Source: Klebsiella phage KpLz-2_45. Taken from it: 64,000 nucleotides of DNA. A program made the position numbers and the translations under genes. The notes beneath the pieces were generated by a model. It had not been told where the DNA came from. It saw only the letters and a list, made by a program, of their open reading frames with translations, and ran no database searches. This document shows positions 4,026 through 60,100 of the stretch, piece after piece. Every line of letters begins with the position of its first letter. Position 1 is the first letter of the stretch. The stretch is from sequence record MN871446.1; one strand, given 5' to 3'.

Positions 4026-4382
4026 TCAGTGCAGTTTTCTTTTATCTTCTTCGGTCAACCTATACCGCATCTTGATAGGTGGGTCATTATTGAATAAGGC
4101 GTCTAGCGTCACCGTTGTTTCGTCTTTATCCGTGACCCGAACCCATGTGAAAATATATTCCGAATCAGACTCGTTGATATATTTTAACACTCGCGCCATA
4201 AAGGGCATTTCAAGGTCTTCGTCACAAAACATCGGATTGATGTAAACTCCTATCGAAAGAGGGTCCTTTAAACGGGATAACAGGTAAACTTTCCCTATTT
4301 CCATTCCGGACGGACCGCCTTCCACGGGGTAAAAGTTGACATCGCCAACGTTGGATTTTAACACCATAATTGCTTCGCGCAT
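4026..4382 (-). CDS. hypothetical protein
   Basis: 118-aa ORF, preceded by a terminator hairpin and a Shine-Dalgarno AAAGGAGGG. Confidence 0.55.
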   Translation of the reverse strand: MREAIMVLKSNVGDVNFYPVEGGPSGMEIGKVYLLSRLKDPLSIGVYINPMFCDEDLEMPFMARVLKYINESDSEYIFTWVRVTDKDETTVTLDALFNNDPPIKMRYRLTEEDKRKLH

Positions 4383-4420
4383 AAATTAAACCCTCCTTTC
4401 ATTCAGAGCAATTGACGAGA

Positions 4421-4453
4421 AAATAAAAAAGGAGAGGCAAAAGCCTCTCCTCT
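4421..4453 (-). terminator. rho-independent terminator GGAGAGGC-AAAA-GCCTCTCC plus T-run (minus strand)
   Basis: Perfect 8-bp GC-rich stem. The plus-strand A-run at 4420-4430 becomes TTTTTTATTTT downstream on the minus strand. It sits between two minus-strand genes. Confidence 0.7.
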
Positions 4454-4456
4454 CAT

Positions 4457-4744
4457 TTAATGTCTTTTTTGCCGTATCCAAAGATTCTTAGTTGGAATCC
4501 AGATAGCAACAATTTCCCCATGAACATGTTTAACGCGCGCCCCTTCTGGCCATCTGGGAATTACTTTTGTAATCTCTTCAACTTCATGATACCAAAGACG
4601 ATCAGGCAAAGTAAAAGCCAAAACACGCAAGTAACCGTACTTCATGGAACTTTCTTTACCGTCTATGACCATTTCGATCCACTTCCCGGAATGTTCATAA
4701 CTTTCAAGAATTCCTATTTTTTCTACGGAATCAGAATCGCTCAT
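4457..4744 (-). CDS. hypothetical protein
   Basis: 95-aa ORF. Confidence 0.5.
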   Translation of the reverse strand: MSDSDSVEKIGILESYEHSGKWIEMVIDGKESSMKYGYLRVLAFTLPDRLWYHEVEEITKVIPRWPEGARVKHVHGEIVAIWIPTKNLWIRQKRH

Positions 4745-4756
4745 TTACACCTCTGG

Positions 4757-5197
4757 CTATTTTTCAGGCGGTAGGCCGTTATTAAAACGGTTCGCTTCCA
4801 TCACCGGGAGATTCGCTTCTGTCGGGACGTAGATCACTTGGTTCTTAGTTTGCTGTAAGCTATCTACCCAAAGGTAACGGAGATACGCTTCGTTGTTCTT
4901 CAAGCTGTCACCAATGATCTTGTTCGCCTTGGCGACACCGCCTGCACGAATAACCTCTGCCTCCGCCAAACTTTTAGCGGACTCTTTCTTAGCCTCTGCT
5001 TCCTGTACGGCGATCTGACGATCCTGCGTGGCTTTCATCAGAGCGGCTTTCCCCGCCATCCCCTGCTGCCAAACATTGTAGTACGGGCACCCCGCCATCA
5101 GCAGCACTATAAACGCAACAATGCCGATGGCCGCCCATTTACCCACCTTCTTTAATAACGACTTTACGTCGAAATCATTATCAGCGTAACGATTCAT
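4757..5197 (-). CDS. SPFH/band-7 (prohibitin/HflC-like) membrane protein
   Basis: N-terminal transmembrane helix (WAAIGIVAFIVLLMAG). The C-terminal region QDRQIAVQEAEAKKESAKSLAEAEVIRAGGVAKANKI...NEAYLRYLWVDSL matches the Ala/Glu-rich SPFH C-terminal helix. Confidence 0.5.
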   Translation of the reverse strand: MNRYADNDFDVKSLLKKVGKWAAIGIVAFIVLLMAGCPYYNVWQQGMAGKAALMKATQDRQIAVQEAEAKKESAKSLAEAEVIRAGGVAKANKIIGDSLKNNEAYLRYLWVDSLQQTKNQVIYVPTEANLPVMEANRFNNGLPPEK

Positions 5198-5227
5198 TTC
5201 TATTTCCTATTTTTTAAACCAGTAAAC

Positions 5228-5917
5228 TTATTTGTTGGTTTTGGTGATATACCACTTCCAAAGGCCGTAGAAAGCATTCATCAAGAATACTGCCCACTGT
5301 GCCACCTGCGCCCATGAACCCGGTTGATTAAGCGCCGGGATCACCCACAGATAAATCGTGACGCAGTTGATAATGATCCAGAGAATCCATTGTTCTGGCT
5401 GCTGCTTGATCATCATCCACATGGCGATGAGCGATGCGACTAAGCAGAACGCGTCTAATGCAGGAAACGGATCCTGCGTAGTTTTCAGGTATTCGGTCAG
5501 GCCATACCAGAAGATAACCCCAACAACCAGATAAGTTATCACGTCACGTAAAGTGATCGTTTTAACCGCTACGTCAGCTTTGGCTGGAGTTTTGCCCAGG
5601 TCTTTCGTCCAGTAATAAATACCGATAAACTGCATGGGAAGGTAAATAGCGTTCAACGCCGCATTGGCATAAAGGCCGGTATTGTACGAAACAATACCGT
5701 AGGTAATTACGCCAATCGTCCCCCAGTAATAATTAGAGACGCGACCCTTCGCCACCAGAATCACGCAGACGACGTTAGTCAGCGCTGCCGTGAATTCTAA
5801 CGGACTGGCTTGCCAGCTCCCTAATCCGACGACGATTAACGCTACGATCAGCCAAAAGTATTCGACTTTCTTCCAGTGCGCAAAGTCAGTGAAAGTTTTC
5901 ATTACCAATGAGTTCAT
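5228..5917 (-). CDS. pnuC: nicotinamide riboside transporter PnuC
   Basis: 229-aa polytopic membrane protein. It carries the PnuC signature blocks ...VILVAKGRVSNYYWGTIGVITYGIV... and ...WILWIIINCVTIYLW..., compared with E. coli PnuC SLEKISNYFFGLINV and WLLWVIINVISVV. Confidence 0.85.
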   Translation of the reverse strand: MNSLVMKTFTDFAHWKKVEYFWLIVALIVVGLGSWQASPLEFTAALTNVVCVILVAKGRVSNYYWGTIGVITYGIVSYNTGLYANAALNAIYLPMQFIGIYYWTKDLGKTPAKADVAVKTITLRDVITYLVVGVIFWYGLTEYLKTTQDPFPALDAFCLVASLIAMWMMIKQQPEQWILWIIINCVTIYLWVIPALNQPGSWAQVAQWAVFLMNAFYGLWKWYITKTNK

Positions 5918-6057
5918 CTATTAAATCCTTCGAGAAAAGTTGAGATGTAACTTGCGGATCTCAGATTAAGTTTGTCGCCAAATACAGCGTGGTAAAAGCG
6001 ATAGTTATCGCCTAACATCCGCTTTATTTTGCGTTGCGTACGCCGTTGTTGAGTCAT
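5914..6057 (-). CDS. possible small basic protein (47 aa, MTQQRRTQRKIKRMLGDNYRFYHAVFGDKLNLRSASYISTFLEGFNR)
   Basis: Occupies the 144-nt nadR-pnuC spacer. Its stop overlaps the pnuC ATG as ATGA. The Shine-Dalgarno is weak and there is no homology evidence. Confidence 0.25.
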   Translation of the reverse strand: MTQQRRTQRKIKRMLGDNYRFYHAVFGDKLNLRSASYISTFLEGFNR

Positions 6058-6061
6058 GAAA

Positions 6062-7273
6062 TCATCCACCCCAATCAGCGGGGTTCTGATGAGAACCAGC
6101 CTCGATGCTTTCTACCATACTCCAATCTTTATCAAAGTTACCACCGCTGGCAGCAGGAGGGAACTTATTTGGAATTTCTGGAGCGCTCTGGCCGGCAGTG
6201 CCGTTACCGGATAACAAGTTATCAACCGCTTCACGTGATTGATCTAAACGACCTTTGTAAGAGTCCCCTTTAATGAATACAGTGCGCCCCCATGGTGTTT
6301 GGTTTTTAAATTCCCAAAGCATTTGTTGGAAGAGACTCTCTGTTTTCTCGCGGTCAGGATTCAGCCGCAGACCATCATCGACCCATGGTACTTCCGGCGA
6401 AAGAATCAACACGAGATCGTAATGCTCTTCAGCCGCGATAGCAGAAACAATAGGGTTAGGTTTACCCTCGTACAGCCGATGGTAATATTCCGTAATGAAG
6501 GCGTTCGTATCGATGAAACAGAGTCGATTAGAAGTACGTAATGCTTCCTCCTCCAGCTCTTTGTGACGATACGCAATCAACGGGTAGTCAGAACTACGGA
6601 GAGTCGCTTCCGAACCCGCTAAGACCGTTTCACAGTACGTACGGCCGTACTCTTCAACCCAGCTGGTATTGTAGAGTTTGGCGAGGTTCTTGACGAGGGA
6701 ACTTTTCCCAGAACTCTCAACGCCTAATACGACCACCCGCAAACAATAATCTTTACGGACAATGCTCGGGAGATATTCCCAATGGTCGTAAAGGTTTTCA
6801 CGGATCATCGTGGCGGAGATGGGGACGCGGGTACGGTTACTGTCAACGATAACGTGTTCTACAAAACCGAGGTGCGTTTTGTATTTTTCATCGTAATCCA
6901 GCTCGCTACTGAAAATAGCAATGCTCTGCGCCTGACTGTGATTAGCTGCCAGTCTACCTGCCTCGTTGAAAATCTTAGCGCCGAGCAGAGCAGCGTATTC
7001 TTTCCAGCCGTTCGGGTATTCCGGTACAGAAGCCTCATCAATGAAATCGATCGTGACGTGCTCTGTATCCGCGTAAGTCTGTTGCAGCCAGCGCAGACGA
7101 TTCTTGAAATTGAGTACCTTTTGGTCTCGTGGCGATTGTTTATCCAGCCAACGTTGGTCGTGGGAAAGAATGACGAGGACATGCTTAGACTGCACAGCAG
7201 CCTCTGTGATTAAGTTGATGTGCCCCAACGTAAGGGGTGCGAATTTACCGATTACTACGCCTAAGTCAAACAT
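6062..7273 (-). CDS. nadR: NadR-like bifunctional NMN adenylyltransferase / ribosylnicotinamide kinase, lacking the N-terminal HTH repressor domain
   Basis: Motif GKFAPLTLGH is the nucleotidyltransferase (H/T)xGH motif. ISATMIRE is the ISxTxIR motif. VVVLGVESSGKSSLV is the kinase-domain Walker A. The NMNAT and RNK domains are collinear with E. coli NadR. An extra C-terminal tail of about 50 aa is present. Confidence 0.9.
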   Translation of the reverse strand: MFDLGVVIGKFAPLTLGHINLITEAAVQSKHVLVILSHDQRWLDKQSPRDQKVLNFKNRLRWLQQTYADTEHVTIDFIDEASVPEYPNGWKEYAALLGAKIFNEAGRLAANHSQAQSIAIFSSELDYDEKYKTHLGFVEHVIVDSNRTRVPISATMIRENLYDHWEYLPSIVRKDYCLRVVVLGVESSGKSSLVKNLAKLYNTSWVEEYGRTYCETVLAGSEATLRSSDYPLIAYRHKELEEEALRTSNRLCFIDTNAFITEYYHRLYEGKPNPIVSAIAAEEHYDLVLILSPEVPWVDDGLRLNPDREKTESLFQQMLWEFKNQTPWGRTVFIKGDSYKGRLDQSREAVDNLLSGNGTAGQSAPEIPNKFPPAASGGNFDKDWSMVESIEAGSHQNPADWGG

Positions 7274-7291
7274 CTGATATACCCTTCCTTA

Positions 7292-7606
7292 TTAGCCTAC
7301 GAAATGGTGATAAAGACGATGCAAGTCCCAGCCCTTATGATTCATCGCATTGAATCCCTGCTCATTCTTGACTACCACCTTGACGGCGTAGTCTTCCATC
7401 AGAAGGAAATCCCGCCCTGACTTAGAATGAATATCGCCATCGTAGACCGGACCATCTACAATCAGCTGGTTCATCGTGCCGATAACATGGCCAACGTCAT
7501 TCCGCTCGAGTAACATCGTCACGGTTTTCTCTAACTCGGCAGCGTACGCCATATCTACTTCTTCATCGGCATCTAGACCACAAATCTCAATAATCTGATT
7601 CAACAT
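7292..7606 (-). CDS. hypothetical protein (coupled upstream of nadR)
   Basis: 104-aa ORF, 18 nt upstream of nadR. The nadR Shine-Dalgarno lies inside the spacer. Confidence 0.5.
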   Translation of the reverse strand: MLNQIIEICGLDADEEVDMAYAAELEKTVTMLLERNDVGHVIGTMNQLIVDGPVYDGDIHSKSGRDFLLMEDYAVKVVVKNEQGFNAMNHKGWDLHRLYHHFVG

Positions 7607-7619
7607 GTTTTAGTTTCCT

Positions 7620-8012
7620 TTATTCGGTCCAGGGACGGAAAGTCCATGTACGAACTTTGTATTTACGATTATCAAAACGACGGCTACGGATATAGACCTC
7701 TACAGTTAAACTCGTTGCCGTTGGGGTGAGAAAAACAACCAGGTGTGCGGGTTCGTACTGGTACACCTCCGCTAAAGAAACAAACGCCGAGAACGGCAGA
7801 CTTTTCTTTTCAGCGGAACGGAGATTCCGATAGAGCAGTTTCACTGCGCGTTTAGCGAACACCTGGTCGTGGTAACTGGCGTGACGGAGACTTTTCCGAT
7901 TAGCGTTTAACTTCATCAGAAACAAACGCTTCTCCGCCCATGGGAGGTAATAGCTCAAACTGATCCCTGCCCCAGAAAACAATATTGCTGATAGTGTTTT
8001 CATTAACGCCAT
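7620..8012 (-). CDS. hypothetical basic protein
   Basis: 130-aa ORF. Confidence 0.5.
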   Translation of the reverse strand: MALMKTLSAILFSGAGISLSYYLPWAEKRLFLMKLNANRKSLRHASYHDQVFAKRAVKLLYRNLRSAEKKSLPFSAFVSLAEVYQYEPAHLVVFLTPTATSLTVEVYIRSRRFDNRKYKVRTWTFRPWTE

Positions 8013-8025
8013 TAATTTTCTTCTC

Positions 8026-8268
8026 CTATCGTATATCGTTGTTGTCTTTCTTGAACGGGTTATAGATGTTCAAGTACCAAACCAACCCGACGAATATTCC
8101 GATGCAGATAAAAGGCCATGCAATACCAATTGTCAAAACCTTCCAGATCTCCATACGGAGGACGACGCGGCGATACTTGGGGTTAACAATTGGTTTCCAA
8201 ACAATCATCAGAAACACAACCGCCCAGAGCGCCCCGCCGGCAGATATCAACATTCCCGCTGTACTCAT
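8026..8268 (-). CDS. small membrane protein (2 transmembrane helices)
   Basis: 80 aa with two hydrophobic helices. Confidence 0.5.
   Translation of the reverse strand: MSTAGMLISAGGALWAVVFLMIVWKPIVNPKYRRVVLRMEIWKVLTIGIAWPFICIGIFVGLVWYLNIYNPFKKDNNDIR
8058..8070 (-). promoter_or_regulatory. ACATCTATAAC motif variant, 46 nt upstream of the 8012 ATG
   Basis: Related to the ACATCTATAT(Y)AC motif. It lies in the 3' end of the upstream CDS. Confidence 0.25.
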
Positions 8269-8579
8269 GACTTCACACCTACCGTTAAAAGGAGGGTTCG
8301 CAGGTAATCCGCATCCGGGTTGAGTACAACACTGAACCGACTGTTGTCGTGAATCAGAATCAAATCACCAGGATAAAGAACTGCGGTGTGATTTCCGTCG
8401 TACACGAAATTCAAGGTCGCGTAATCTAACGCGTCTTGTTCAGGAAACCGTGGCGTGACGGGTGGTTCATTCAGGATATCGGCGGCGGGGTCGCCTGCCA
8501 GGATACGTAAGAACCCGTTGTACTCAGTCGGAACAATAGGGAGTTCCACATATTTCAGTTCAATCACGTGCGTTAACAT
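8265..8579 (-). CDS. hypothetical protein
   Basis: 104-aa ORF. A 4-nt overlap with the preceding gene indicates coupling. Confidence 0.5.
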   Translation of the reverse strand: MLTHVIELKYVELPIVPTEYNGFLRILAGDPAADILNEPPVTPRFPEQDALDYATLNFVYDGNHTAVLYPGDLILIHDNSRFSVVLNPDADYLRTLLLTVGVKS

Positions 8580-8596
8580 GATTCACCTCTTTATCG

Positions 8597-9091
8597 TTAG
8601 TTATTAAAGGATCGAAAGAATTCGTTGCCGTGTTTAACCCCGTCGAGAATGTCGTTACAGAGCTTTGGTATTTGTCTGATAACTAGGATATCCATAATCT
8701 TGAAATCGGCACAGTGGATAGCCCGGAGTTTTTCATAAGCGAGATCACCTTTAAGTGAACGCGTAATGCCGAGGAGATCACAGGTGTTTGTAACAGGGCA
8801 AAGAGAAAACCAACCTTGCTTTGCGTAGGTGTCAAAGTCCATGATTAGTTTTCTTAGACCGACTTCTTTAAACGGGTCATTACCCGCTGAGGGCCAGTTG
8901 ATAGCCCTGGTTAACGGGTGAAGCGAATTTAACCAGAGAACGAAAGGGTCCGACTCTTCATAGGTCGCGTTTTCAGGAGCAAGATTACTCAGCGCTGTTC
9001 CGTTACCAATGCCGCTAAATTGTTTCTGATTTTCCATCGTTACCTTATCCACACCCGTCGCAAAGACTTTACCAAAAAATTTAATAAGCAT
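8597..9091 (-). CDS. hypothetical protein
   Basis: 164-aa ORF. Confidence 0.5.
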   Translation of the reverse strand: MLIKFFGKVFATGVDKVTMENQKQFSGIGNGTALSNLAPENATYEESDPFVLWLNSLHPLTRAINWPSAGNDPFKEVGLRKLIMDFDTYAKQGWFSLCPVTNTCDLLGITRSLKGDLAYEKLRAIHCADFKIMDILVIRQIPKLCNDILDGVKHGNEFFRSFNN

Positions 9092-9351
9092 TAGAGCCCC
9101 TCGGTTGAGAACATTTTTAACCCGTGTCGATAGTGAACGCGGTTTTTCAATAGATGACCCATCTCAGCACATTTTTTCAGCCTGGTCGCAAGTAACGTTT
9201 TCCCCATCCGGCGTGGCGCTGAAATTGTGAGATTACTGTCTAAATCATCAAAATAGGGTTTGGATACTTTAATGAGGAAAATATGGTTGGCGGTGACGGA
9301 ACTTCTTTTCAGTTTCCCTCTCTGTATTTTCAAACATTTTTTCAAGGCCAT
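9091..9351 (-). CDS. hypothetical basic protein
   Basis: 86-aa ORF. A 1-nt TAATG overlap with the downstream gene indicates coupling. Confidence 0.45.
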   Translation of the reverse strand: MALKKCLKIQRGKLKRSSVTANHIFLIKVSKPYFDDLDSNLTISAPRRMGKTLLATRLKKCAEMGHLLKNRVHYRHGLKMFSTEGL

Positions 9352-9360
9352 AGCGTCTCC

Positions 9361-9486
9361 TTATTCTAGTGAATCATAGAGCTTCTTACCAATAGCAAAC
9401 AGTATCTTAAGTATCGCACCGGAGATGTACCAAGCACCACCGTAACAGAAGATTACGAAGATAACGATTTTCCATTCTACTGGCAT
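9361..9486 (-). CDS. small hydrophobic membrane protein, 41 aa (MPVEWKIVIFVIFCYGGAWYISGAILKILFAIGKKLYDSLE), below the ORF-track cutoff
   Basis: Strong Shine-Dalgarno CCGGAGGTGTACT-ATG. It sits in an otherwise empty 197-nt gap just downstream of a terminator hairpin. Transmembrane-like composition. Confidence 0.4.
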   Translation of the reverse strand: MPVEWKIVIFVIFCYGGAWYISGAILKILFAIGKKLYDSLE

Positions 9487-9500
9487 AGTACACCTCCGGT

Positions 9501-9545
9501 ATTTAAGAAATAATAACTGAGAGAGGGCATTATCCCTCTCTCAGT
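9501..9545 (-). terminator. terminator hairpin ACTGAGAGAGGG-CATTAT-CCCTCTCTCAGT plus T-rich tail
   Basis: 12-bp stem. Downstream on the minus strand is TATTATTTCTTAAAT. It follows the stop of the 9549..10175 gene. Confidence 0.6.
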
Positions 9546-9548
9546 CGG

Positions 9549-10175
9549 TCAATATAAGTTTTCGGAATAAAGTTCGTTGTTAATAATGATAACGTTGGGA
9601 CGTGTGGCGTTAATTTGTCCGGCGTGTTTCGCAATGACAAACGCGTCTTCTCGATTCCAATAACGATCCCATTGATCGATAAACCCTTGTCCGCTACCGT
9701 GCGGGAAATTGACAGGTTCTTCACCTGCCTTTGCTCGGAGGCGTTTGATCTCATCGCCGAGGATATGCTGTAGAAGCGAACCGTGGCGCGAAGAAGGAAT
9801 GACCAAAGGCTCTTCTTCTTTTAACCCCAGTGCTTCTCCGAGTCTTTCATTCGGTTTCACTGTTCCCCAGATATTTGCCGCTGAAACGATACGGACCTGA
9901 ACAAAGATACCTGGTGACGGCTCGTGTACGCAAATAGCCGGGAGGGTTGCTCTTTGTTCTTCAGTGAGTACTTCGTCATCAGCGTAGCCTTCCTCTTTAC
10001 GGAAATGAGATTCGGCTAATTGACACGACGCGAGGATATCCATGGCCAATTTGCGAGCAGAGTCGATATCAAACTCGTACTGCCCGCTCTTTAACTGAAT
10101 AACCTTATCATCGCGAATGTCGTAATCGCGGATATCTACTCGACTGTAGTCACCTTCATGAATCATTTTAGTCAT
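9549..10175 (-). CDS. hypothetical protein
   Basis: 208-aa ORF with no recognisable catalytic motif. Confidence 0.55.
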   Translation of the reverse strand: MTKMIHEGDYSRVDIRDYDIRDDKVIQLKSGQYEFDIDSARKLAMDILASCQLAESHFRKEEGYADDEVLTEEQRATLPAICVHEPSPGIFVQVRIVSAANIWGTVKPNERLGEALGLKEEEPLVIPSSRHGSLLQHILGDEIKRLRAKAGEEPVNFPHGSGQGFIDQWDRYWNREDAFVIAKHAGQINATRPNVIIINNELYSENLY

Positions 10176-42422: not shown

Positions 42423-42881
42423 TCACCAAATCGGCTCGCCACGATCAATAAACTGAATTCTTTCTTTTCTACAGAGTTTTTCTAAGATATCTTTTAAGAG
42501 GTGACGATGACAGAAGCAGTCGTGTTTACAATAGCAGGCTAAACAAATTCGTTCCTGATTAATCAACCACAGCCACGGTTCCGGATTTTTGATAAACCGT
42601 TCACGGGTCAACCGGTAATAGATATCAACGTATTCCGCTTCACTGACAATGCCTTGCTTAAATGGCCAGAGTAATTCTGGAGTGGGTGCAAAGTCTTTTA
42701 TTCCGCTTTTTAAGGTGGTATCGACAAAGACAATATCCAGTCCTTCCCAAACTCGCCAATCTGGTATTCTGCCTGTCCATACTTCGAGTTGCTTGAATGA
42801 ACGAAACATCTCTCCTCCGTTCAATGAAACCAAAAAAAACAATGAGACGATTAACCTGCTTAGGTCAAAAGACCTAAGCAT
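42423..42881 (-). CDS. hypothetical protein with a C-terminal Cys/His cluster (CLACYCKHDCFCHRH)
   Basis: 152-aa ORF. The C-terminus looks like a metal-binding cluster. Confidence 0.5.
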   Translation of the reverse strand: MLRSFDLSRLIVSLFFLVSLNGGEMFRSFKQLEVWTGRIPDWRVWEGLDIVFVDTTLKSGIKDFAPTPELLWPFKQGIVSEAEYVDIYYRLTRERFIKNPEPWLWLINQERICLACYCKHDCFCHRHLLKDILEKLCRKERIQFIDRGEPIW

Positions 42882-50983: not shown

Positions 50984-53900
50984 TTACTGTTCATTATCGT
51001 AGGCTTTCAGCATCTCCTGCTGAATGTTTTCAATAAGAACGTTACCCATCCCAAGGAGTAATGCGGAGTTTACGATACGTGCGTTGATCGCGCGATACGA
51101 GAACTGAAGGTCGATGTCCCACGGTTCTCCGCCAGGCAGTACAGGGTTACGTGTACGGCAAATACCGTTATACACACCACTTACCACCGACTTCTTCTGG
51201 TTACCCACCACCAGTTTATCGCCGTCCCCCATACCACGCTGATGCGTGATATAAATACGAATCGCCATCATATCAATCTCTAACGGCAAACCGTCGATCC
51301 GGCTCGGCGTGAAGACCTGTCCGGTCGGACTCGTTTCTTGCTTGAGTACCTTGACGTTTTTCGCACGAATCGCGTCGTATTTATCCGCCACCTTACGAAC
51401 CGAATCCGACATGTCCTCTTTCTCACCGAAATAGAACACCTCAATCTTCTCAACCGTTCCTACGTGTTTTGCACGAGGGGCTGGGTTACCGAGTCGCGCT
51501 AAGGTTTCCATAGAACTGGCATCAAAGTAATCAAAGTTCGCTGAGATTTCGTCTTCGATAAACGCGAGGGTGTCGTCGATGTCAACGTGTTGTCCTTCGC
51601 TCACCAAATTACGGATTGCCTGATTAAAGTTCACCATCAGGACACGGGTATGCGTCACCAACGTCGCCATCTTCTTAGAGAGCCGTTCTGAAATCAGACT
51701 GGCGTCTTCGAAGGTGTTGTTGTTTTCCATCAACGCGATGTTTGTGGTGATCCCGTTCTTGAACGCGACCTGACCTGGCTCACGCCAGTCTTTCGCAAAG
51801 AACCCCGGATGGTAAGCGATAATGGTATCCTTCTTCACGCTCGCACCGACTTCCAGATCACAACGCATCTCATGCGGGACGGTATGACCTGTCACGATAC
51901 CGAACTTACGTCCAATCTCGATACGGTCTTCACCGAGCGCGGGATCATCGTATTTCACGACAACGTAATTCTTTCCTTTCTCTGTTACCACGCCCTGACC
52001 TTTTGCGCTGGCAGCGAAAAGATCATCATTACGGTGGGCCATCATTAACTCGTAACCCGTGCGGATATAACCGAGGTCATCTCCTACACTGCTTATTTTG
52101 TGGCTACTCTGAATACCGATAAAGTTAACGCGCTTCGGGTCGTCATAAGTCGCAAAGGGTGATACCAATGCGCTAGTAGAAAGGATATTACTAAACCCTT
52201 TCTCTTTACTCAGGTCTTTCTCAGTCCGTGCTGTACCACGTAAACTGGTGAGGTTAGGGTTCGCTGACAGGAAGCAGTTAATCCCAACGTCGCCGTTATC
52301 CACCGAGGATTCAGAACGAATACCAATATCACTCGGATGGAACGCACGGGTACGTCTCGTCATGGAACGCTTACCGCGGCCGCCAGTACCGGAATAAGTC
52401 AGGTTCTCTTTCTCTTTCAGGTTTTGGATAGGGTTAGAATCTTCTACCAGAGAAACAGAGGGATCTTTCTGTATCGCGGACAATACCTCGAACGGTGGGA
52501 AATCCAAAGACGCCCTTGAACTGAGGTTACTGGAAGATTGTCTCCGGACGGCTTCTGAGAAGGTACGGTAGACCGCTCCTGCCATACGCTCGTAACCTTT
52601 GAATAACGAGCCCTCTGAACTCAGGTCACTCGGGTATTCATCGGTCGCCAAGTAAAAGGCGGCTTTCTTCAACAGCGGGATGAACGTGGTGGGTTCGTTC
52701 ATCATCTCCAGGTTCTCTTCTGCGATCGGGTCGATAAAGATTGCATTAAGGTTAGTGAACTCGTAGAGATAGCGTCCTGATAACTGCATGTCAGAAAGCA
52801 GTGCGTTGTAGTTGTCCCGATTGTCCAGTTCTGCAACAGAATAGTTTTTCAGGGCAGCCTTCCACAGAAGCAACGAAGCGTAGATCAAGACATCAGGGTG
52901 TGTCTTTCTTGGGATACGCCAGATCTCATCGGCAAAGACGATCTCGAAGGTATTCGGGTCGGGTTGTACACGCGCCCCTTTCGTTCTCCGTTCCGGCTGA
53001 ATCTCTAACCCTTCTACCATCTGACTGAATCCTTCCAGATAAGCCAATACAATGGCTAACGGGAACTCTTGTCCTAAGATAGAGATTGTCACCAATTCAT
53101 TCGGACGGTCATCTGGGTTAGCTCCAAGGAGTTTTGCGATATGCCCGAGGTTGTCAGCACCGGCGCGCAGGTAACCCTCTTTATCCATCGTGACCGTAGT
53201 TTTCCCGCGTTTTCCTACTGGGATATCCGTTGTTCCATTCCAATCCGGGAAATTTTTCTTGATGTTCTCGTAGTCGAAAATAAACTGTATGCCCACTGCC
53301 TCAAACGAGATGACCTCTTTGGCGATAGCCGAATAGGTTCTGGGCACCGGTTGGGAATCTTTGAACGAGTTACCGTAAACAATTTCCGTCATGATCGGCG
53401 GGTTAGTTAACGCCGCGCGGTTCATGGCATCTTTAAGCCACTCTCCGTAATCGTAACGACGTTTATCGCTGCGGTCGACAAACAGCTTGCCGTAATACGT
53501 GGACAGCGCTACGGTCGATGGAGAGATCTTACGGATGGGTTTATCAAAACGCAATTTGCGCATGAAGTATTTAATCCCACCGATTTTATATTTCCCATTT
53601 TTATCGATGACCGGTAACTGGAAACGAACCGTAGAAGGCGCGCCTTTAACCGGCGAGATTTTCACCGTGTAATCGTAAAGGTCATTTAACGCATCGACTT
53701 GGCGTTCCACTTTAAAGTCGGTAATGGCAAACCCGGCTTTCTGGAAATTAAGGATTAAATTGATCACGTCCTTTTGCATGACTTCTTTAACGTACTTTTG
53801 ATCGAAGTCGATCAAGGTACTTTTTAACATGCTTTTATCTTTGACGTGGGTAATATCCTCGATGACCTTCGGTTCAAAATTCCAGACGACTTCTTTCGGG

Positions 53901-55471
53901 ATCTGTCGGTAGTCTTCCAGCGAAACGCTTTCGTTGAACGGGGAAGGAATAACCTTGTAACTTTCGGCCAAACGAAGATGACGCTTGTACTCGGCATTGC
54001 TAATCAGCCCTTTACTCAGGAGCGATTCTGCTTGGGTTCGAATCCCTGAAACCAAAGGCGATTCCTGAACCGCTTCTTGCGGTGGGTCGATAATGACCTC
54101 TGCGTCAATGTCAGGGGCAGCAACCAGACGAACAGCGCGAGGCGGTTCAGTGGTCTCAATCTCCTCAGTGACGCTCTTAAAGGCATCAACTAACTGCGTA
54201 CGAAGACCGGGTTTCCCTTGGTTAATCTTTTCCCTGAGCGCTTTGACTGTGGTGGTTTTAACGACAGGTTCTTCTGGGTTGTTTTCTTGGGTTTCTGTTT
54301 CCGTTGTTTCCACCACAACCGTTTCTTCCGCGTCACCGGTGATCTCGAGGATTTCACTTTCCCCGGTATTCTCATCCGGGATAGTTTCTTCGATGGTGAC
54401 CTGTTCCTGCACACCGGTCAGCAATTTCAGCGCAGTGATGTGTTGTAGCATCAATCGGGAGATCTGTGCGTAAGCATCGCCTTTCGGGTTAGTTTCTGAT
54501 TTGGTCCATTGGTGAAGCAGGCCCAGATTCAGAACCGTGAATTTCCCCATTCGCATAAAGACGAAATTAATCTTGCTGTAATGTTCGACCGGGATCATGT
54601 TCAACAGCGAGTTTTCCCGTTTCTCAGCAAGCCACTGCCAGAGGTCTTGAATAAAGAGCGCATCGTCATTCTGGAAATACCCGAGACGAATACGATTCAT
54701 CTCTTCCAGTGAAACACCGGACGCCGCAATGAAACTGTCGTCGCTTTCAAAGCCCAGCGCTGACTCATCAAATGCCTCTCGCGCCACGTCAGCCGGTAAC
54801 TCACTCGATAACCCTGGCATATGGAGATCGAAGACATCTGCGTACGAGAGGGCAACGGGACGTGCTCGGAGCTGATTCTGATACGCATTGAGGATAGGGA
54901 TACCCGCATCCTCAACTGAAATGTTTAACTGCATCTTCGTTGGGAGTTCATCCGGGACATTGACCAGAATAAACTGATGGCGGTCAGAATGTTCAGCGTA
55001 GAACTTAGCCTGTCCGTATAACGTAGCGAGCAGGTTTTGGAAACGCCAGAATCGGGCCATCGGTAACGGCAGGTAACGCCACTGCATGGGGATGAGCGAG
55101 TAGTTGGCGACAATCGCAGCGTTACGGTCGTCTAATGCTCTGGCGATATCGGTAACCCGACGGAAACCACGGCGCTTTTGCAACCACGTCCGTTTTAGGT
55201 TAGCAACATTGAACGCTCCTTTCCGACGAGGACTGCCGTTAAAGAGTGTCATTTCCGTAATGTTATCGGCGTAGGGACGTAGTCTTTCTTTTTGGATTGC
55301 GAAGAACGTCTCGTCAGGACCTAAGTCAGTGGCATTACTGGGAAGATAATGGACGATGCTATTCTTAGGGAGAATAAAGTTCTCGACATTGAACGCTCTT
55401 GGGTTAGCCAGTCGCGTTTTATTACGTGTCCCGTAGGACATGTAAAATTGCTGGTATTGAATATTACTCAT
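50984..55471 (-). CDS. multisubunit-type RNA polymerase beta-like subunit
   Basis: 1495 aa. The C-terminal third carries ...NNNTFEDASLISERL... (the beta GYNFED(A/S)I region) and ...GMGDGDKLVVGNQKKSVVSGVY... (the beta GDKxxxRHGNKGV region) in the correct order. Confidence 0.65.
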   Translation of the reverse strand: MSNIQYQQFYMSYGTRNKTRLANPRAFNVENFILPKNSIVHYLPSNATDLGPDETFFAIQKERLRPYADNITEMTLFNGSPRRKGAFNVANLKRTWLQKRRGFRRVTDIARALDDRNAAIVANYSLIPMQWRYLPLPMARFWRFQNLLATLYGQAKFYAEHSDRHQFILVNVPDELPTKMQLNISVEDAGIPILNAYQNQLRARPVALSYADVFDLHMPGLSSELPADVAREAFDESALGFESDDSFIAASGVSLEEMNRIRLGYFQNDDALFIQDLWQWLAEKRENSLLNMIPVEHYSKINFVFMRMGKFTVLNLGLLHQWTKSETNPKGDAYAQISRLMLQHITALKLLTGVQEQVTIEETIPDENTGESEILEITGDAEETVVVETTETETQENNPEEPVVKTTTVKALREKINQGKPGLRTQLVDAFKSVTEEIETTEPPRAVRLVAAPDIDAEVIIDPPQEAVQESPLVSGIRTQAESLLSKGLISNAEYKRHLRLAESYKVIPSPFNESVSLEDYRQIPKEVVWNFEPKVIEDITHVKDKSMLKSTLIDFDQKYVKEVMQKDVINLILNFQKAGFAITDFKVERQVDALNDLYDYTVKISPVKGAPSTVRFQLPVIDKNGKYKIGGIKYFMRKLRFDKPIRKISPSTVALSTYYGKLFVDRSDKRRYDYGEWLKDAMNRAALTNPPIMTEIVYGNSFKDSQPVPRTYSAIAKEVISFEAVGIQFIFDYENIKKNFPDWNGTTDIPVGKRGKTTVTMDKEGYLRAGADNLGHIAKLLGANPDDRPNELVTISILGQEFPLAIVLAYLEGFSQMVEGLEIQPERRTKGARVQPDPNTFEIVFADEIWRIPRKTHPDVLIYASLLLWKAALKNYSVAELDNRDNYNALLSDMQLSGRYLYEFTNLNAIFIDPIAEENLEMMNEPTTFIPLLKKAAFYLATDEYPSDLSSEGSLFKGYERMAGAVYRTFSEAVRRQSSSNLSSRASLDFPPFEVLSAIQKDPSVSLVEDSNPIQNLKEKENLTYSGTGGRGKRSMTRRTRAFHPSDIGIRSESSVDNGDVGINCFLSANPNLTSLRGTARTEKDLSKEKGFSNILSTSALVSPFATYDDPKRVNFIGIQSSHKISSVGDDLGYIRTGYELMMAHRNDDLFAASAKGQGVVTEKGKNYVVVKYDDPALGEDRIEIGRKFGIVTGHTVPHEMRCDLEVGASVKKDTIIAYHPGFFAKDWREPGQVAFKNGITTNIALMENNNTFEDASLISERLSKKMATLVTHTRVLMVNFNQAIRNLVSEGQHVDIDDTLAFIEDEISANFDYFDASSMETLARLGNPAPRAKHVGTVEKIEVFYFGEKEDMSDSVRKVADKYDAIRAKNVKVLKQETSPTGQVFTPSRIDGLPLEIDMMAIRIYITHQRGMGDGDKLVVGNQKKSVVSGVYNGICRTRNPVLPGGEPWDIDLQFSYRAINARIVNSALLLGMGNVLIENIQQEMLKAYDNEQ

Positions 55472-55486
55472 TGCAGAGAAACTCCT

Positions 55487-57118
55487 TTAAGCTTCACCAG
55501 TAATGTTACGTAAGACTAATTGTACGTTATCAACATCCGCGCTCTTAGAGAGAGTACCGCGGGAAGAGAGGAACCATTCTTTACGACCTTTTAGCATTTC
55601 GTATTCAGCAATAGAATCCGAGGCATAGATCGCTGTAAAGGTACAACGGTCGCCATCGAAGTCGGCACCCAATGGAGAGAGATAGCTGACGCCTATCCCC
55701 ATAGAGTTAACGTACTCTACCGATTTGCTTTGATCAGGGAATTCGAAACAAATGAAATCGTCACCCAGTCTCCGCCAGTCGTGGCCGAGTTCAGCTTTTA
55801 CGCTAGAAACAATAGTCGGTTTGCAGTAAATGTTTGCTATGAAAGTCGACCCTTGTCCTGTAACAGGGTAACGAGTCACTACGCCTGCTAACTTACCCCA
55901 TTCACGATACCCGGACAGGTAATAAAGCGAGGTCATGTTAATCGGGCTAACAAACCGCTTATCAAAACCCGCTGGGAGTTCGTTGATATCAGCGAAGAAC
56001 CGGAACCCTTCTTCACCCCAATAGAGCAGTCCTAAGTAATAACCGTCTATTAAAATTGGTTTATTTCTGAAAGCCGGGGTTTTATAGCGGGTGATCTGGG
56101 CATCTAAACCGTCACGGGTTGTCCAACGTTCAACGGCCTCCGGGGAGGGCTGTACGTATTCAGCACGGAGAGTTTTGGGGTTCGTCAAACGGATTTCATC
56201 TTCGCTGTTACCCGAGAAAACTTCACCTAGCCAACCTGAGCGTAAGAAATAGCGTGTCTTAGGCAGGACCGCTTTGATGGTCTGGTAGAGCCCTAACTGA
56301 ACGTGGTTGATCCCTGGCGTATTCGTTTCACCGATCCGAGTCCCTGTGATCTTCATTGGCGAAATAACGTTTGCTGTACCGTTAATGATTTTACGTGACG
56401 CCCATTTCGCAGCCGCAAAACCTTTCTTTCCTTTAATCATGTTAAAGATACTTTCGAATATCTCGTTGAACTGTCGTTGTAATTGTAAACGACTGTTATT
56501 GATTAAAGGGTCTTCAGAAGGCTCACGACCCATCTCCAGACTGTTGGAGATTGAGATGATAGAACGATAGAATTTGTTGATTTCGTCTTCACTCGTACGC
56601 CCTGAGGTTTCTACCATCAGATCACGCAGACCTGCCGGCATGACCAGGACTTTATCAGTCAGCGCTTTGTCTTTATTTTTGTTGATGAGCTTCACGCGGA
56701 GATTACGGAGTTCGGAATCGCCTTCTTCTAATTTCAAATCGGGGAAATGACGTACAAAAAAGGAGAAGCCGGTTTCGCCCTCCATTTCGTTGCTGGGTTC
56801 GAAATCGAAGGTTTCTGTGTTAAAGACGGCATAACGTCGCCCTTCCAGAATATCCAAATAAAGACGTTTTAATGAACCGAGTCGTTTATAAACGAGCGGG
56901 TGAAAAACACGGGTATGGAGTTCGATATAACTGAAACGCCCATCGCGTTCAGGTGAACCTAAGGGACCGAATGTTTCTACTGAGAATAAACCGTCCTTAT
57001 GGAAATTACGGGTACCGGTTTCAAAGATCTCGGTCGTACTGGTCGGTCGCATACTCCGTATCAGTTGAGGGGTTAAATCCATGAGGAAGATATTGAATGG
57101 GATATCGTTAGTACGCAT
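55487..57118 (-). CDS. RNA polymerase beta-prime N-terminal-like fragment (split msRNAP subunit)
   Basis: 543 aa ending ...YLSPLGADFDGDRCTFTAIYASDS.... This is the beta-prime NADFDGD catalytic Mg-binding motif, at the expected position for an N-terminal beta-prime piece. Confidence 0.65.
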   Translation of the reverse strand: MRTNDIPFNIFLMDLTPQLIRSMRPTSTTEIFETGTRNFHKDGLFSVETFGPLGSPERDGRFSYIELHTRVFHPLVYKRLGSLKRLYLDILEGRRYAVFNTETFDFEPSNEMEGETGFSFFVRHFPDLKLEEGDSELRNLRVKLINKNKDKALTDKVLVMPAGLRDLMVETSGRTSEDEINKFYRSIISISNSLEMGREPSEDPLINNSRLQLQRQFNEIFESIFNMIKGKKGFAAAKWASRKIINGTANVISPMKITGTRIGETNTPGINHVQLGLYQTIKAVLPKTRYFLRSGWLGEVFSGNSEDEIRLTNPKTLRAEYVQPSPEAVERWTTRDGLDAQITRYKTPAFRNKPILIDGYYLGLLYWGEEGFRFFADINELPAGFDKRFVSPINMTSLYYLSGYREWGKLAGVVTRYPVTGQGSTFIANIYCKPTIVSSVKAELGHDWRRLGDDFICFEFPDQSKSVEYVNSMGIGVSYLSPLGADFDGDRCTFTAIYASDSIAEYEMLKGRKEWFLSSRGTLSKSADVDNVQLVLRNITGEA

Positions 57119-57162: not shown

Positions 57163-60100
57163 ATGGCCAAAAGAGAAAAAATAGATCTGGATCGTTTTGA
57201 CGATTTTGATCTCGAAGATAATTGGGGCATGGACAAAGAACCTCAAAGTGCGAAAGACGGAAGCGGTAAACGCGAGGCTGTAAAAAAGGCAGGAAAGACC
57301 GTTCTCCGTGAGATGGGGAAAACGACCTTTACCAGTCAGATGGCGAAAACCATCCTGAAAGAGGCCATGCCGCGTTCTTTCACTACAACCTTAGATAACG
57401 TTGATAAAGGTTTAATCGACGTTCGATCGCTTTACGCTGACGTCCGTAAAGATGCCGCCCCGATGCTGCGAGAAATGAAAGCGTTGGGTCGTACCGTCAA
57501 CCGTCTTGTTCCTACACCGTATCAGAAAAAGATCGATGCGTTTCTGACGAGAAACAACGGGACAGATAAATCAGGTTCTCAACTGGCAGCGCTCAATATT
57601 GAAGACGCAGCGGTACTCCAGTCGTTAGCTCAAGTCTTCAATCAAGACGATGACAAACCGAAGCAGATGAGCCCTGAGGAACTGACTGAGAAACTGACCG
57701 ATCAGCAGTATAAAATAAAACTGGGTACGGCCATTGCGAGTATCCAGAATCTCCTGGCGAAGCAGACCGCTTATCAGTTTGGTGCACAGCGTGCATTTCA
57801 AAAGAAAAGTATGGAGCTTCAAATTCGACAGCTGATGGTTTCGCGTGCCCATTTAGACGTGGCACAGAAGTCTGCGGTTGAAACCTCCAACCTGCTCAGA
57901 AGCGTTGTCGAAAACACCGCGTTACCTGACGTAGTAAAACAGCACCGTTCGGAAGAATTCCTTCGGATGGGCCGTGAGAAAATCTTTGGTCGCATCCAAC
58001 AGTCAATGTACGACTGGACGAGTAATTATCGTAACCAGTTCAAAGACCGTGCGAAACAAGCCATTAACGACAGAATGCAAAAACTCACTATGGGTTTTTC
58101 AATGGCCAACGATTCTCTCGAACAGCTCGAGGCGCAACGGGAATTACTGGCGTCAATGGGTGTCACCCCGGAGGAGTTTTTAGCAGGGGCAGCAGGGAAC
58201 TGGGGTGCGTTACAAATCGGTAAACGTATCGGAAAACGCATTAATAAAAGTGCGCCTTCGCTACGTCGATTGGACGGTACATTCCAGGGCGTCAACTACC
58301 TCTTTAACAACAAAGAACGTTTAGCGTCAGATTGGGGAAATTCCGGTTACCGTTACGGGAAATGGTATAATCCCATCGAGAACTTTGTTAAAGACACCTT
58401 ACGTGGCGGTTACCGTGACGAAGGCGTAGTTCGCGCCGGAGGATTGGGGAACGGAGAAAAAATCTCGACTGTAGACGAGCGTAAACTCAGCTATATGGAA
58501 GAGATGTCCGGGTACCTGTCCCGAATCTTACATAGTATCGACGTCCTCAGGACGGGCGATAATAACACGCAGCGCACGGTTTTCAACCGTCAGAAGGGCA
58601 TTTTTACCTCCTTTAATGAATCGGTGGCGTCGACGCGTCAGGCGTTGATTAAAGACACCGATATCAATTCACAGCGTGAGAATATTAATCGTCTTATCGA
58701 GAACATCGATAACAACAACCGGTTATCTCCCGACGCTAAAGGTAAAATTTCTGATCACCTGATGACAAGGGCAAGAACCTCGAAAGCCTTTAACCCGGCA
58801 GCCCTAGCTAATGAGAAAATCTCAGGGTTATCCCGTGACGACCAACGCCTTTGGCAAGGACTGATGGCGAAACGTTATGGACTGAAACTGAACGAGAAAA
58901 GTGAATGGTCGCTTAACCCGTTCTCTTCTTCAAACGTTAACCTTAATATCGATGCCGGTCAGTATAACTACGCCTCTAACCAAACGCAGGGTATCTTTAA
59001 TCGTGCCCATGCGTTAGCGCAAACCGGTAACCTTGAAGAACTGATCTCAGAAGGCGCAGTGGTCTTTAAGAACGGTAATTGGGAAGTTAACCCAGACTAT
59101 TACGGTTCACGCGTATCTGGTAAACCTTCACCGGGTAACAACGACTCGACTAACCCTAACGACATGGGTCCACATCGTCCTCGTAACCCACCGCCGGGTA
59201 CCCCGCCTATCACTGAACTCCGTCGCTTCGGACAAGATTGGACCAACCCGAATTCGGTTAACTTTAATCTTAACGGGAACCAACAAAATTCTTTCGGGAC
59301 GGCGTTAGCGGAACAAACCGATAGAATCCTTGAGTCCATGAAACACTCTCAGTTGTTCTGGGATGAGCAAATGGCCAGAATAGAGGCACAGCTTACCGCG
59401 CTGGAAGGGTGCTGTCTCAACGGAGGAGGTGGCGGTGGTCAAGGTGGCCAAGGCGGTGATACTGGCGATCAAGGCGGGCGTCGTCGTTTCTCACGGAACT
59501 GGGCTAAACGCGGGCTCCGTGCGGGTATCGGCGGTATTCGTCGTGGTGTGAAAGGGATGTGGGATCTTGGCGGTTTACCGCTTAAAGCAGCAGGAGAGAT
59601 CTTTAAGCGAGTACGTCGCCCGGCTTTCAATGCAGCGATGACGATCGGTACCTTTGGCCTGAATAAAGTCTTAGGTTTCGGGATGCAGGCGTTTGAGAAA
59701 GTTCAAGACGGCTATATCGCGACGGCACAGGGTTTAAAGAAAGTCATTGAAAAAGAAGGACTGGCAGCGGGTCGTTACGTTGACCAAGCCACCGGGAAGG
59801 TTATCAAGAAACTTTCTGACGTACGGGGCGCAGTCTGGGACGTGGTAAATAACACTCAGGTCCTGACCGACGACGAAGCGAGACGGGGTTTGTTTAACGC
59901 CGCAGGAAACCGCATTAAGACATCCTTTAACAAAGTACTCGGTGCGGTGGGGAGTCTATTAAACGGAAGGTTTACCCCTTATCATTTACTCAAAGGTGCT
60001 GCAGGCGGATTAGGGAAAGGTCTCTTTTCCTTATTCGGTCGCTTACCAGATATTTACGTGCTCGGAGAAATGAAACCGCGTCTCTACGCCAGTAAGTTGG

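Follow-up and report, generated by a model that had tools for sequence, protein, structure and literature searches.

A probable NARP3-type module of HTH-less NadR and PnuC for NAD+ reconstitution in a jumbo Klebsiella phage

Introduction

What does a phage gain from its own enzyme and transporter for making nicotinamide adenine dinucleotide (NAD+)? The question is raised by positions 5228 to 7273 of a 64,000-nt stretch of DNA from Klebsiella phage KpLz-2_45 (MN871446.1); the whole stretch is called the window here. On its minus strand, this locus encodes a NadR-like enzyme that lacks a helix-turn-helix (HTH) domain and, downstream of it, a PnuC-type transporter of nicotinamide riboside (NR). 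The two genes are very probably a module of the NARP3 type, with which a jumbo Klebsiella phage would rebuild NAD+.

Homology to a system characterized by experiment and by structure gives good support to the mechanism proposed below, but this kind of module is already published. The original prediction for this DNA regarded NadR/PnuC as a route to NAD+ distinct from those described for phages, a view that is now out of date. NadR was listed among phage NAD+ synthesis genes, and the NadR/PnuC route among those of phages, in 2022 (Iyer et al., 2022; PMC9503650). Phage NadR was then reported to lie usually in an operon with PnuC and was proposed as possibly “yet another pathway” (Osterman et al., 2024; bioRxiv 10.1101/2024.02.11.579819), and a 2024 survey of jumbo phages found pnuC in 68 of 174 NAD-jumbo phages (PMC11662467). 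The name NARP3 was given by Yan et al. (Sci Adv, 12 Aug 2026; PMC13464706) to an HTH-less NadR, Bas30_86, and a PnuC-like protein, Bas30_87, which act together.

A NadR-like enzyme without a repressor domain

The first gene of the locus encodes two catalytic domains that handle NR and nicotinamide mononucleotide (NMN). Its features are:

6062..7273, minus strand: nadR-like gene (403 aa), HTH-less bifunctional NMN adenylyltransferase and ribosylnicotinamide kinase; putative NadR component of NARP3
6743..7273, minus strand: NMN adenylyltransferase (NMNAT) domain, aa 1-177; Pfam PF01467 (CTP_transf_like) over aa 7-159
6197..6742, minus strand: ribosylnicotinamide kinase (RNK) P-loop domain, aa 178-359; Pfam PF13521 (AAA_28) over aa 179-323, E 1.7e-30
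7220-7249, minus strand: GKFAPLTLGH motif of the NMNAT domain, aa 9-18
6800-6820, minus strand: ISATMIR motif of the NMNAT domain, aa 152-158
6701-6724, minus strand: Walker A motif GVESSGKS of the RNK domain, aa 184-191

The protein belongs to PHROG 3462 (“nicotinamide-nucleotide adenylyltransferase”, E 5e-125) and scores 260 bits against the NCBIfam NadR equivalog PRK08099, whose cutoff is 201. The PRK08099 alignment begins at model position 65 and ends at 408 of 411, and the protein therefore lacks the HTH part. An in-frame TAA lies 15 nt 5′ of the nadR ATG, and the preceding gene ends at 7292, with the Shine-Dalgarno-like sequence AAGGAAGGG between that end and nadR. The upstream stop and the end of the preceding gene mean that no N-terminal HTH can be encoded, and its absence is therefore a property of the nadR gene rather than of the choice of start codon. 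Without coding space upstream, the window protein falls outside the canonical trifunctional NadR (PRK08099), which has an N-terminal HTH. It is predicted to be unable to repress NAD genes, since this domain is missing.

The Pfam matches, the PRK08099 alignment from position 65, and the upstream TAA thus bear out the original prediction of an HTH-less NadR with both catalytic domains, and the three motifs quoted in it are present. Among 44 homologues, G9, K10, F11, G17, H18, S153, A154, and R158 of the NMNAT domain are invariant, as are G184, E186, S187, K190, and D255 of the RNK domain. An AlphaFold2 model built on the same number of homologues has a mean predicted local distance difference test score (pLDDT) of 88 over the whole protein and is confident over residues 1-359. 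The top structures retrieved with this model by Foldseek are all NadR (8X7F, 1LW7, and 6GYE).

The PnuC transporter

The transporter gene lies downstream of nadR in the same operon:

5228..5917, minus strand: pnuC gene (229 aa), NR transporter; putative transporter component of NARP3

PnuC matches Pfam PF04973 (NMN_transporter, E 3e-43), PHROG 1880 (E 4e-56), and the solved PnuC of N. mucosa (PDB 4QTN, E 3.6e-29). It scores 122 bits against the TIGR01528 equivalog “nicotinamide riboside transporter PnuC”, well over the cutoff of 42. The WxxW stretch EQWILWII of the window protein is aligned with EQWALWIV of N. mucosa PnuC. The matches to PF04973, TIGR01528, and 4QTN agree with the NR importer that had been proposed for this position. 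Against the enterobacterial PnuC subfamily NF011926, the protein reaches 59 bits, far under the cutoff of 335. A recent capture from the Klebsiella host was rejected on account of this low score.

The ratio of nonsynonymous to synonymous substitution rates (dN/dS) is 0.01-0.08 for PnuC within the clade of related Klebsiella jumbo phages and 0.03-0.11 for the NadR core across it. These values indicate that both genes are maintained by purifying selection.

Correspondence with NARP3

NARP3 was characterized in Escherichia phage TrudiRoth. Bas30_86 converts NR to NMN and NMN to NAD+, and Bas30_87 shows NR binding (dissociation constant, Kd, ~0.66 uM), which is abolished by alanine substitution of N45, Q94, and N180 (PMC13464706). 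The residues of Bas30_86 required by mutagenesis are K10/F11, S37, E80/P84/G89, F110, S112/D115, V139/I141, E230, and D275 (PMC13464706). Co-expression of Bas30_86/87 in Sir2-HerA cells raised phage plating about 10^3- to 10^4-fold and brought NAD+/NADH back to parental levels. The pair is also effective against DSR1 and overcomes Sir2-HerA in K. pneumoniae too. Its rescue is NR-dependent, with a half-maximal effective concentration (EC50) of 3.6-5.6 uM (PMC13464706).

Bas30_86 is the best solved-structure match of the window NadR (PDB 9X6F/9X6H, E 2.8e-142). Alignment with the TrudiRoth locus gives 62-63% identity to Bas30_86 and 46-47% to Bas30_87. All the NMNAT-site (site-2) residues of Bas30_86 are identical in the window: K10, F11, S37, E80, P84, and G89 keep their numbers, and F110, S112, D115, V139, and I141 correspond to F121, S123, D126, V150, and I152. 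In site 1, the RNK site, K163, D164, E230, and D275 correspond to K174, D175, E241, and D286. Identity extends to 15 of the 17 named ligand or catalytic residues of Bas30_86, including every one whose mutation abolished function. In PnuC, all three NR-binding residues of Bas30_87 (N45, Q94, and N180) are kept as N48, Q96, and N184.

The features of NARP3 are found together in the window: an HTH-less NMNAT and RNK enzyme, the residues defined by mutagenesis, and a PnuC with the NR-binding residues. Both genes lie on the same strand of a phage genome and in the same terminator-bounded block, although a 47-aa open reading frame (ORF) stands between them. Judging by the conserved domains and residues, the pair would encode the complete route from NR through NMN to NAD+ that had been predicted. 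An anti-defense role, also part of that prediction, is plausible, as it has been shown for the homologous Bas30_86/87 against Sir2-HerA and DSR1 (PMC13464706). From homology to Bas30_86/87, we infer NR transport, both enzyme activities, and an anti-defense effect for the window pair.

The inter-gene slot and the operon

The gene block around the module contains the following further features:

5914..6057, minus strand: 47-aa basic ORF (pI 11), MTQQRRTQRKIKRMLGDNYRFYHAVFGDKLNLRSASYISTFLEGFNR, with its ATG at 6057; fills the 144-nt “spacer” 5918-6061
4427..4454, minus strand: intrinsic-terminator-like hairpin with a 12 bp stem and a T-run; probable end of the unit with nadR, the 47-aa ORF, pnuC, and two downstream ORFs
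9515..9546, minus strand: upstream terminator-like hairpin with a 13 bp stem, a consensus match only; probable start boundary of the same gene block
4757-5197, minus strand: 146-aa ORF 3′ of pnuC with one N-terminal hydrophobic segment; PHROG 11227 “protease”, E 1e-60
4457-4744, minus strand: 95-aa ORF before the terminator; no match in Pfam or PHROGs

The spacer had been suggested to carry either regulation or a 47-aa coupled ORF, and only the ORF found support. Its ATG lies 4 nt past the nadR stop, its TGA overlaps the pnuC ATG (ATGA), and the Shine-Dalgarno-like sequence GGGGTGGA stands upstream of it. The predicted peptide is basic and non-membrane. Its ortholog is gp136 of phage FBKp24, a 50-aa ORF in the same slot, with 64% amino acid identity and a dN/dS of 0.17. 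The differences between the two fall mostly on third codon positions (10, 11, and 23 at positions 1, 2, and 3). By tblastn, the ORF occurs in eight phage records of this clade only, namely KpYy-type genomes and FBKp24, with nothing in LPKP23, MJ359, or Centimanus, and it has no match in Pfam or PHROG. It is probably a real gene, given its selection pattern.

The ORF list gives a 51-aa version of this small ORF that starts from a GTG at 6069. In phage KpSz_1, a 1-nt deletion lies between the nadR stop and the small-ORF ATG, and both ORFs are intact. This deletion favors the ATG at 6057 over the GTG. A read-through or frameshift extension of NadR was likewise rejected, since the ORF is in a different frame and the KpSz_1 deletion alters the relative frame without damage. 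The ORF was also considered as a remnant of the 156-/157-aa ORF of LPKP23 and Centimanus; there is no similarity between the translations.

A regulatory or structured RNA in the spacer was rejected. No NAD+-I or NAD+-II (“pnuC motif”) riboswitch or other Rfam family matches 5918-6061 at E<=5, and the spacer RNA folds no better than shuffled sequences (z-score -1.5). A scan of 4300-9700 at the same threshold gave only two weak Rfam matches, both on the terminator at ~4400.

The content of the nadR-pnuC slot differs among relatives: a 50-aa ORF in FBKp24, a 156-aa ORF in LPKP23, a 157-aa ORF in Centimanus, a 156-aa and a 133-aa ORF in MJ359, and none in YC1. The larger ORFs are located as follows, all on the minus strand:

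L002, 5141-5611: slot ORF of the 156-/157-aa kind
L006, 1698-2171: slot ORF of the 156-/157-aa kind
L005, 2137-2607 and 2620-3021: slot ORFs of the 156-/157-aa kind and of 133 aa

Pfam and PHROGs detect no family for the 133-, 156-, and 157-aa ORFs. From these comparisons, the module seems to hold a variable insertion site in this slot.

Between the strong terminator-like hairpins at 9546-9515 and 4454-4427 (minus) lie about 12 ORFs, those of the module among them, and FBKp24 is annotated with a terminator at the place equivalent to 4427-4454. Counterparts of the 146-aa ORF, annotated “protease”, lie directly 3′ of pnuC in FBKp24, MJ359, and Centimanus.

The C-terminal tail of NadR

The original prediction also drew attention to a novel C-terminal tail of about 50 aa:

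6065..6196, minus strand: NadR C-terminal tail, aa 360-403, about 44-50 aa, with divergence from relatives starting at ~aa 354

The tail has an acidic composition with many G, P, S, and A residues. In the AlphaFold2 model, aa 360-403 have a pLDDT below 50 and no secondary structure. The tail is a real extension relative to Bas30_86 (351 aa), YC1, and the solved bacterial NadR structures. All seven clade genomes have it (proteins of 399-404 aa), with an identity of only 36-62% and with insertions and deletions. A short core is partly conserved (P-x-K-F-x-P-A-x-x-G-x-x-F-x-x-D-W-x-M-V-E-S-[IV]-E). The tail dN/dS (0.23-0.31) exceeds that of the NadR core (0.03-0.11). Nucleotide identity of the window to LPKP23 is 95% in the nadR core and 96% in pnuC but only 47% in the tail, which places the tail in a recombining, variable segment. 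Among the best 120 homologues from 5.8 billion proteins, the tail is covered only in the three clusters at >=85% identity, which are ~404 aa long, whereas almost all of the rest have 335-382 aa. Matches of a tblastn search with the tail alone are confined to the clade. The tail is read here as a lineage-specific, fast-evolving, predicted disordered extension that possibly has no function.

Phage origin and genome context

The module lies in the genome of a jumbo phage. The window matches “Serratia phage KpYy_2_45” (MN871451.1), a 302-kb jumbo phage isolated on Klebsiella pneumoniae, at 100% identity. Ten other jumbo-phage records, FBKp24, LPKP23, MJ359, and Centimanus among them, show 81-99% identity. 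The FBKp24 annotation contains several RNA polymerase subunit genes, the tubulin PhuZ, a large tail-fiber set, and one protein for which a weak similarity to the nuclear shell protein of 201phi2-1 is noted. The window itself contains a tail-fiber block and Pfam matches to Peptidase_S80, dUTPase, and RNA_pol_Rpb1_1. Other NAD-related Pfam families are absent from the 42 further window ORFs.

Four other regions of the window were noted:

13438-41763: about a dozen large ORFs (574-892 aa), tail fiber, spike, or depolymerase genes as annotated in FBKp24
42423-42881, minus strand: 152-aa ORF with Pfam DUF488-N3a (“Active DUF488-N3 subclade”), E 1e-7, above cutoff; unrelated to the NAD+ module
50984-57118, minus strand: ORFs of 1495 and 543 aa; in FBKp24 the equivalents of both carry the annotation RNA polymerase beta subunit
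57163-63756, plus strand: 2197-aa protein, whose FBKp24 counterpart is annotated as a tail fiber with transglycosylase activity

A probable second NAD+ route and an NAD+-consuming gene

Outside the window, MN871451.1 carries an overlapping pair of genes for a PRPS-like protein (287 aa) and a NAMPT-like protein (593 aa) at ~248.4-251.0 kb (L015, 13407-16048). The pair lies about 35 kb beyond window position 1 and about 40 kb from the nadR/pnuC locus. The two proteins are 96% (PRPS-like) and 85% (NAMPT-like) identical to the FBKp24 copies. FBKp24 is annotated with this pair as “ribose-phosphate pyrophosphokinase” and “nicotinamide phosphoribosyl transferase”, with an RNA 2′-phosphotransferase, and with proteins noted for a macro domain. 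Pfam confirms the annotations of the pair and of the phosphotransferase (PF04095 together with NAMPT_N, Pribosyltran, and PF01885).

Compared with the operon of Felixounavirus phage finno, the NAMPT-like protein is 42% identical over its full 593 aa and the PRPS-like protein 37%, with equal lengths and order. The best PDB matches of the NAMPT-like protein are 9W5W/9W5X (E 2e-117, versus ~1e-38 for human NAMPT). The PRPS-like protein is shorter than its best-matching canonical PRPS chains, which are mostly 316-326 aa, with some of archaeal length (284-291 aa). Its 287 aa are in line with Adps, which is reported to have lost its C-terminal alpha11-alpha12 region (PMC13586617). NARP1 was defined in Felixounavirus Bas63 and makes NAD+ directly from ADP-ribose pyrophosphate (ADPR-PP) without an NMNAT (bioRxiv 10.1101/2024.02.11.579819). 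Because the pair is homologous to a Felixounavirus operon, NARP1 is probably present beside NARP3 in this phage, as judged by comparison with the finno pair. ICP1 isolates gave matches to both NadR-like and NAMPT-like queries, so phages outside this clade may also combine two NAD+ routes.

A homologue of the NAD+-consuming RNA 2′-phosphotransferase Tpt1/KptA (L016, 3224-3784) lies about 3 kb beyond window position 1 and is 84% identical to the FBKp24 copy (PF01885, E 3e-42). A homologue of FBKp24 gp170 (L016, 10459-10929) lies about 10 kb beyond it; gp170 is macro-domain-containing according to its depositor and has no Pfam match. FBKp24 gp348, which does match the Macro family, has no counterpart in the searched parts of MN871451.1. 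FBKp24 is also annotated with an RtcB ligase, and the set looks like an RNA-repair and ADP-ribose toolkit near the NAD+ module.

Proposed mechanism and alternative explanations

In the NARP3-type mechanism proposed here, nadR, the 47-aa ORF, and pnuC would be expressed from one minus-strand transcript and translationally coupled. NR in the medium would be imported by PnuC in the inner membrane and phosphorylated to NMN, with ATP, by the RNK domain of the HTH-less NadR. The NMNAT domain of the same protein would adenylate NMN to NAD+. The most likely benefit would be a refilled NAD+ pool under host NADase defenses (Sir2-HerA, DSR, Thoeris, SEFIR, and similar systems), which would allow infection to be completed.

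Several observations weigh against this proposal. Two named site-1 residues of Bas30_86 differ in the window (R167 is L178 and K168 is R179), neither of which is among the reported Bas30_86 mutants. Identity to the characterized proteins is only 62-63% for NadR and 46-47% for PnuC, and the window pair is known from its sequence alone. Strict two-gene coupling is not conserved, as nadR and pnuC are not strictly adjacent and one or two unrelated ORFs lie between them in relatives. As for the promoter and the timing of expression, a sigma-70 scan found 14 sites versus 9.9 +/- 3.1 expected, which is not above chance; in relatives of the window phage, the annotation includes phage-encoded RNA polymerase subunits. 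Finally, with an NAD+-consuming Tpt1 and a probable NARP1 pair in the genome, the advantage could lie in general NAD+ supply, either instead of counter-defense or alongside it.

This last point leads to the alternative with the most in its favor, one that has an appreciable chance of being correct but is on balance improbable. Here the genes form a general auxiliary metabolic module that is not primarily for counter-defense and that supplies NAD+ for the large burst of a 300-kb genome, for Tpt1, and for ADP-ribose metabolism by macro-domain proteins, irrespective of host NADase defense. The Tpt1/KptA and gp170 homologues about 3 and 10 kb beyond window position 1 fit such a role. Jumbo phages often carry NAD+ synthesis genes, which have been read as metabolic independence (PMC11662467), and PHROGs places both families in the category “moron, auxiliary metabolic gene and host takeover”. 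However, the host already has NAD+ synthesis and salvage, and extra capacity would be most useful while NAD+ is actively destroyed. General supply is also compatible with counter-defense rather than exclusive of it. Alternatively, NadR could serve mainly as the terminal NMN adenylyltransferase for the NAMPT-like/PRPS-like pair in a NARP2-like route from nicotinamide and phosphoribosyl pyrophosphate (PRPP) through NMN to NAD+, with NR import by PnuC as a side entry. The presence of that pair in the same genome suggests this, as does the FBKp24 annotation, which shows no further NMNAT. In phages, NadV may be accompanied by NadR (Iyer et al.; PMC9503650), and Namat in NARP2, where Adps is absent, makes NMN from nicotinamide and PRPP (PMC13586617). 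Nevertheless, this division of labor is unlikely. The pair has its homologue in the Felixounavirus operon (42% and 37% identity, with the same lengths and order), and NARP1 needs no NMNAT. Moreover, purifying selection on the RNK domain and PnuC is as strong as on the NMNAT domain, which argues that NR entry is not vestigial, and the two loci are about 40 kb apart.

The clade-specific additions could be functional extras that modulate NARP3. As a short docking motif, the tail might hold NadR close to PnuC or another partner and so trap entering NR, or the inter-gene slot could be a hot spot for swapping small accessory or regulatory genes; such roles seem quite improbable. A transporter and kinase that act on another nucleoside or vitamin, outside any NAD+ pathway, would be very surprising indeed. 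The PnuC family is diverse and includes transporters of other substrates, and the 59 bits of the window PnuC against NF011926 (cutoff 335) leave room for this. Yet the protein passes the cutoff of the TIGR01528 NR-transporter equivalog and keeps all three NR-binding residues of Bas30_87. In its partner NadR, every tested residue of the NMN/NAD+ site is kept, and crystal structures show homologues with bound NR and NAD+.

Distribution and significance

A tblastn search of 50,697 phage records found NadR-like proteins in 789 and PnuC-like proteins in 800 (about 1.6%), with near-identical host distributions:

Vibrio: 354 NadR-like and 394 PnuC-like records
Salmonella: 174 NadR-like and 173 PnuC-like records
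Klebsiella: 45 NadR-like and 45 PnuC-like records
Escherichia: 38 NadR-like and 37 PnuC-like records
Bacillus: 24 NadR-like and 24 PnuC-like records
Lactobacillus: 18 NadR-like and 18 PnuC-like records

These numbers are far above the 124 operons counted in the NARP3 paper (PMC13464706). In both TrudiRoth and YC1, nadR abuts pnuC; the distance between the genes is 62 nt in Lactobacillus phage Semele and about 1.15 kb in Cronobacter phage EspYZU08.

The locus adds little new knowledge beyond a probable NARP3 counter-defense module in ~300-kb Klebsiella jumbo phages as well. If NARP1 is also present, the phage would have two complementary NAD+ routes, one recycling the cleavage products ADP-ribose (ADPR) and nicotinamide and the other importing fresh NR. 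A DNA-shielding phage nucleus would give no protection against metabolite-depleting defenses, so a combination of NARP1 and NARP3 would make sense. In Klebsiella phage therapy, the presence of the module may help predict plating on strains with Sir2-HerA or other NADase defenses.

Comparison with known systems

The closest relatives of the module are in the Klebsiella jumbo phages FBKp24 (Maaswegvirus), LPKP23, MJ359, and Centimanus, whose orthologs are 85-90% (NadR) and 94-100% (PnuC) identical. Their GenBank records already label these genes NadR/NMNAT and PnuC. The tail sequence differs strongly among these four phages and the window. YC1, also a Klebsiella jumbo phage, is more distant (NadR 64%, PnuC 52%) and has neither the tail nor a slot ORF.

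The enzyme resembles the core of bacterial NadR, with E-values of 2e-56 to 8X7F and 4e-54 to 1LW7 (H. influenzae NadR) and Foldseek TM-scores of 0.84-0.85 by target length and 0.73-0.74 by query length. As with E. coli/Salmonella NadR (PRK08099), it is functionally paired with a PnuC NR importer. Unlike the bacterial trifunctional NadR, it has no N-terminal HTH repressor domain, and its PnuC is outside the enterobacterial subfamily.

NARP1 (Adps and Namat) and NARP2 (Nampt and Nmnat) are likewise two-gene phage systems that rebuild NAD+ against NAD+-depleting defenses (Osterman et al., 2024). However, their enzymes and substrates are unrelated to those of the window pair: NARP1 recycles ADPR and nicotinamide, and NARP2 uses nicotinamide and PRPP. 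The window module would use imported NR, which makes it dependent on the environment and independent of cleavage products. The families of NARP2, Nampt and a NadM-type Nmnat that is often Nudix-fused, are absent from the 42 other window ORFs, and no NadM-type gene is present in the FBKp24 annotation.

The best counterpart is NARP3 of TrudiRoth (Epseptimavirus), in whose genome an HTH-less NadR and a PnuC are likewise encoded on one strand. Compared with Bas30_86, the window NadR has a predicted disordered tail of ~44-50 aa and an 11-aa longer helix or loop after aa ~97 in the NMNAT domain. The genes of Bas30 are separated by a 1-nt gap, whereas a 47-aa ORF lies between nadR and pnuC in the window. 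Furthermore, TrudiRoth is a T5-like siphovirus, whereas the window phage is a ~300-kb jumbo phage in which the module co-occurs with a probable NARP1 pair.

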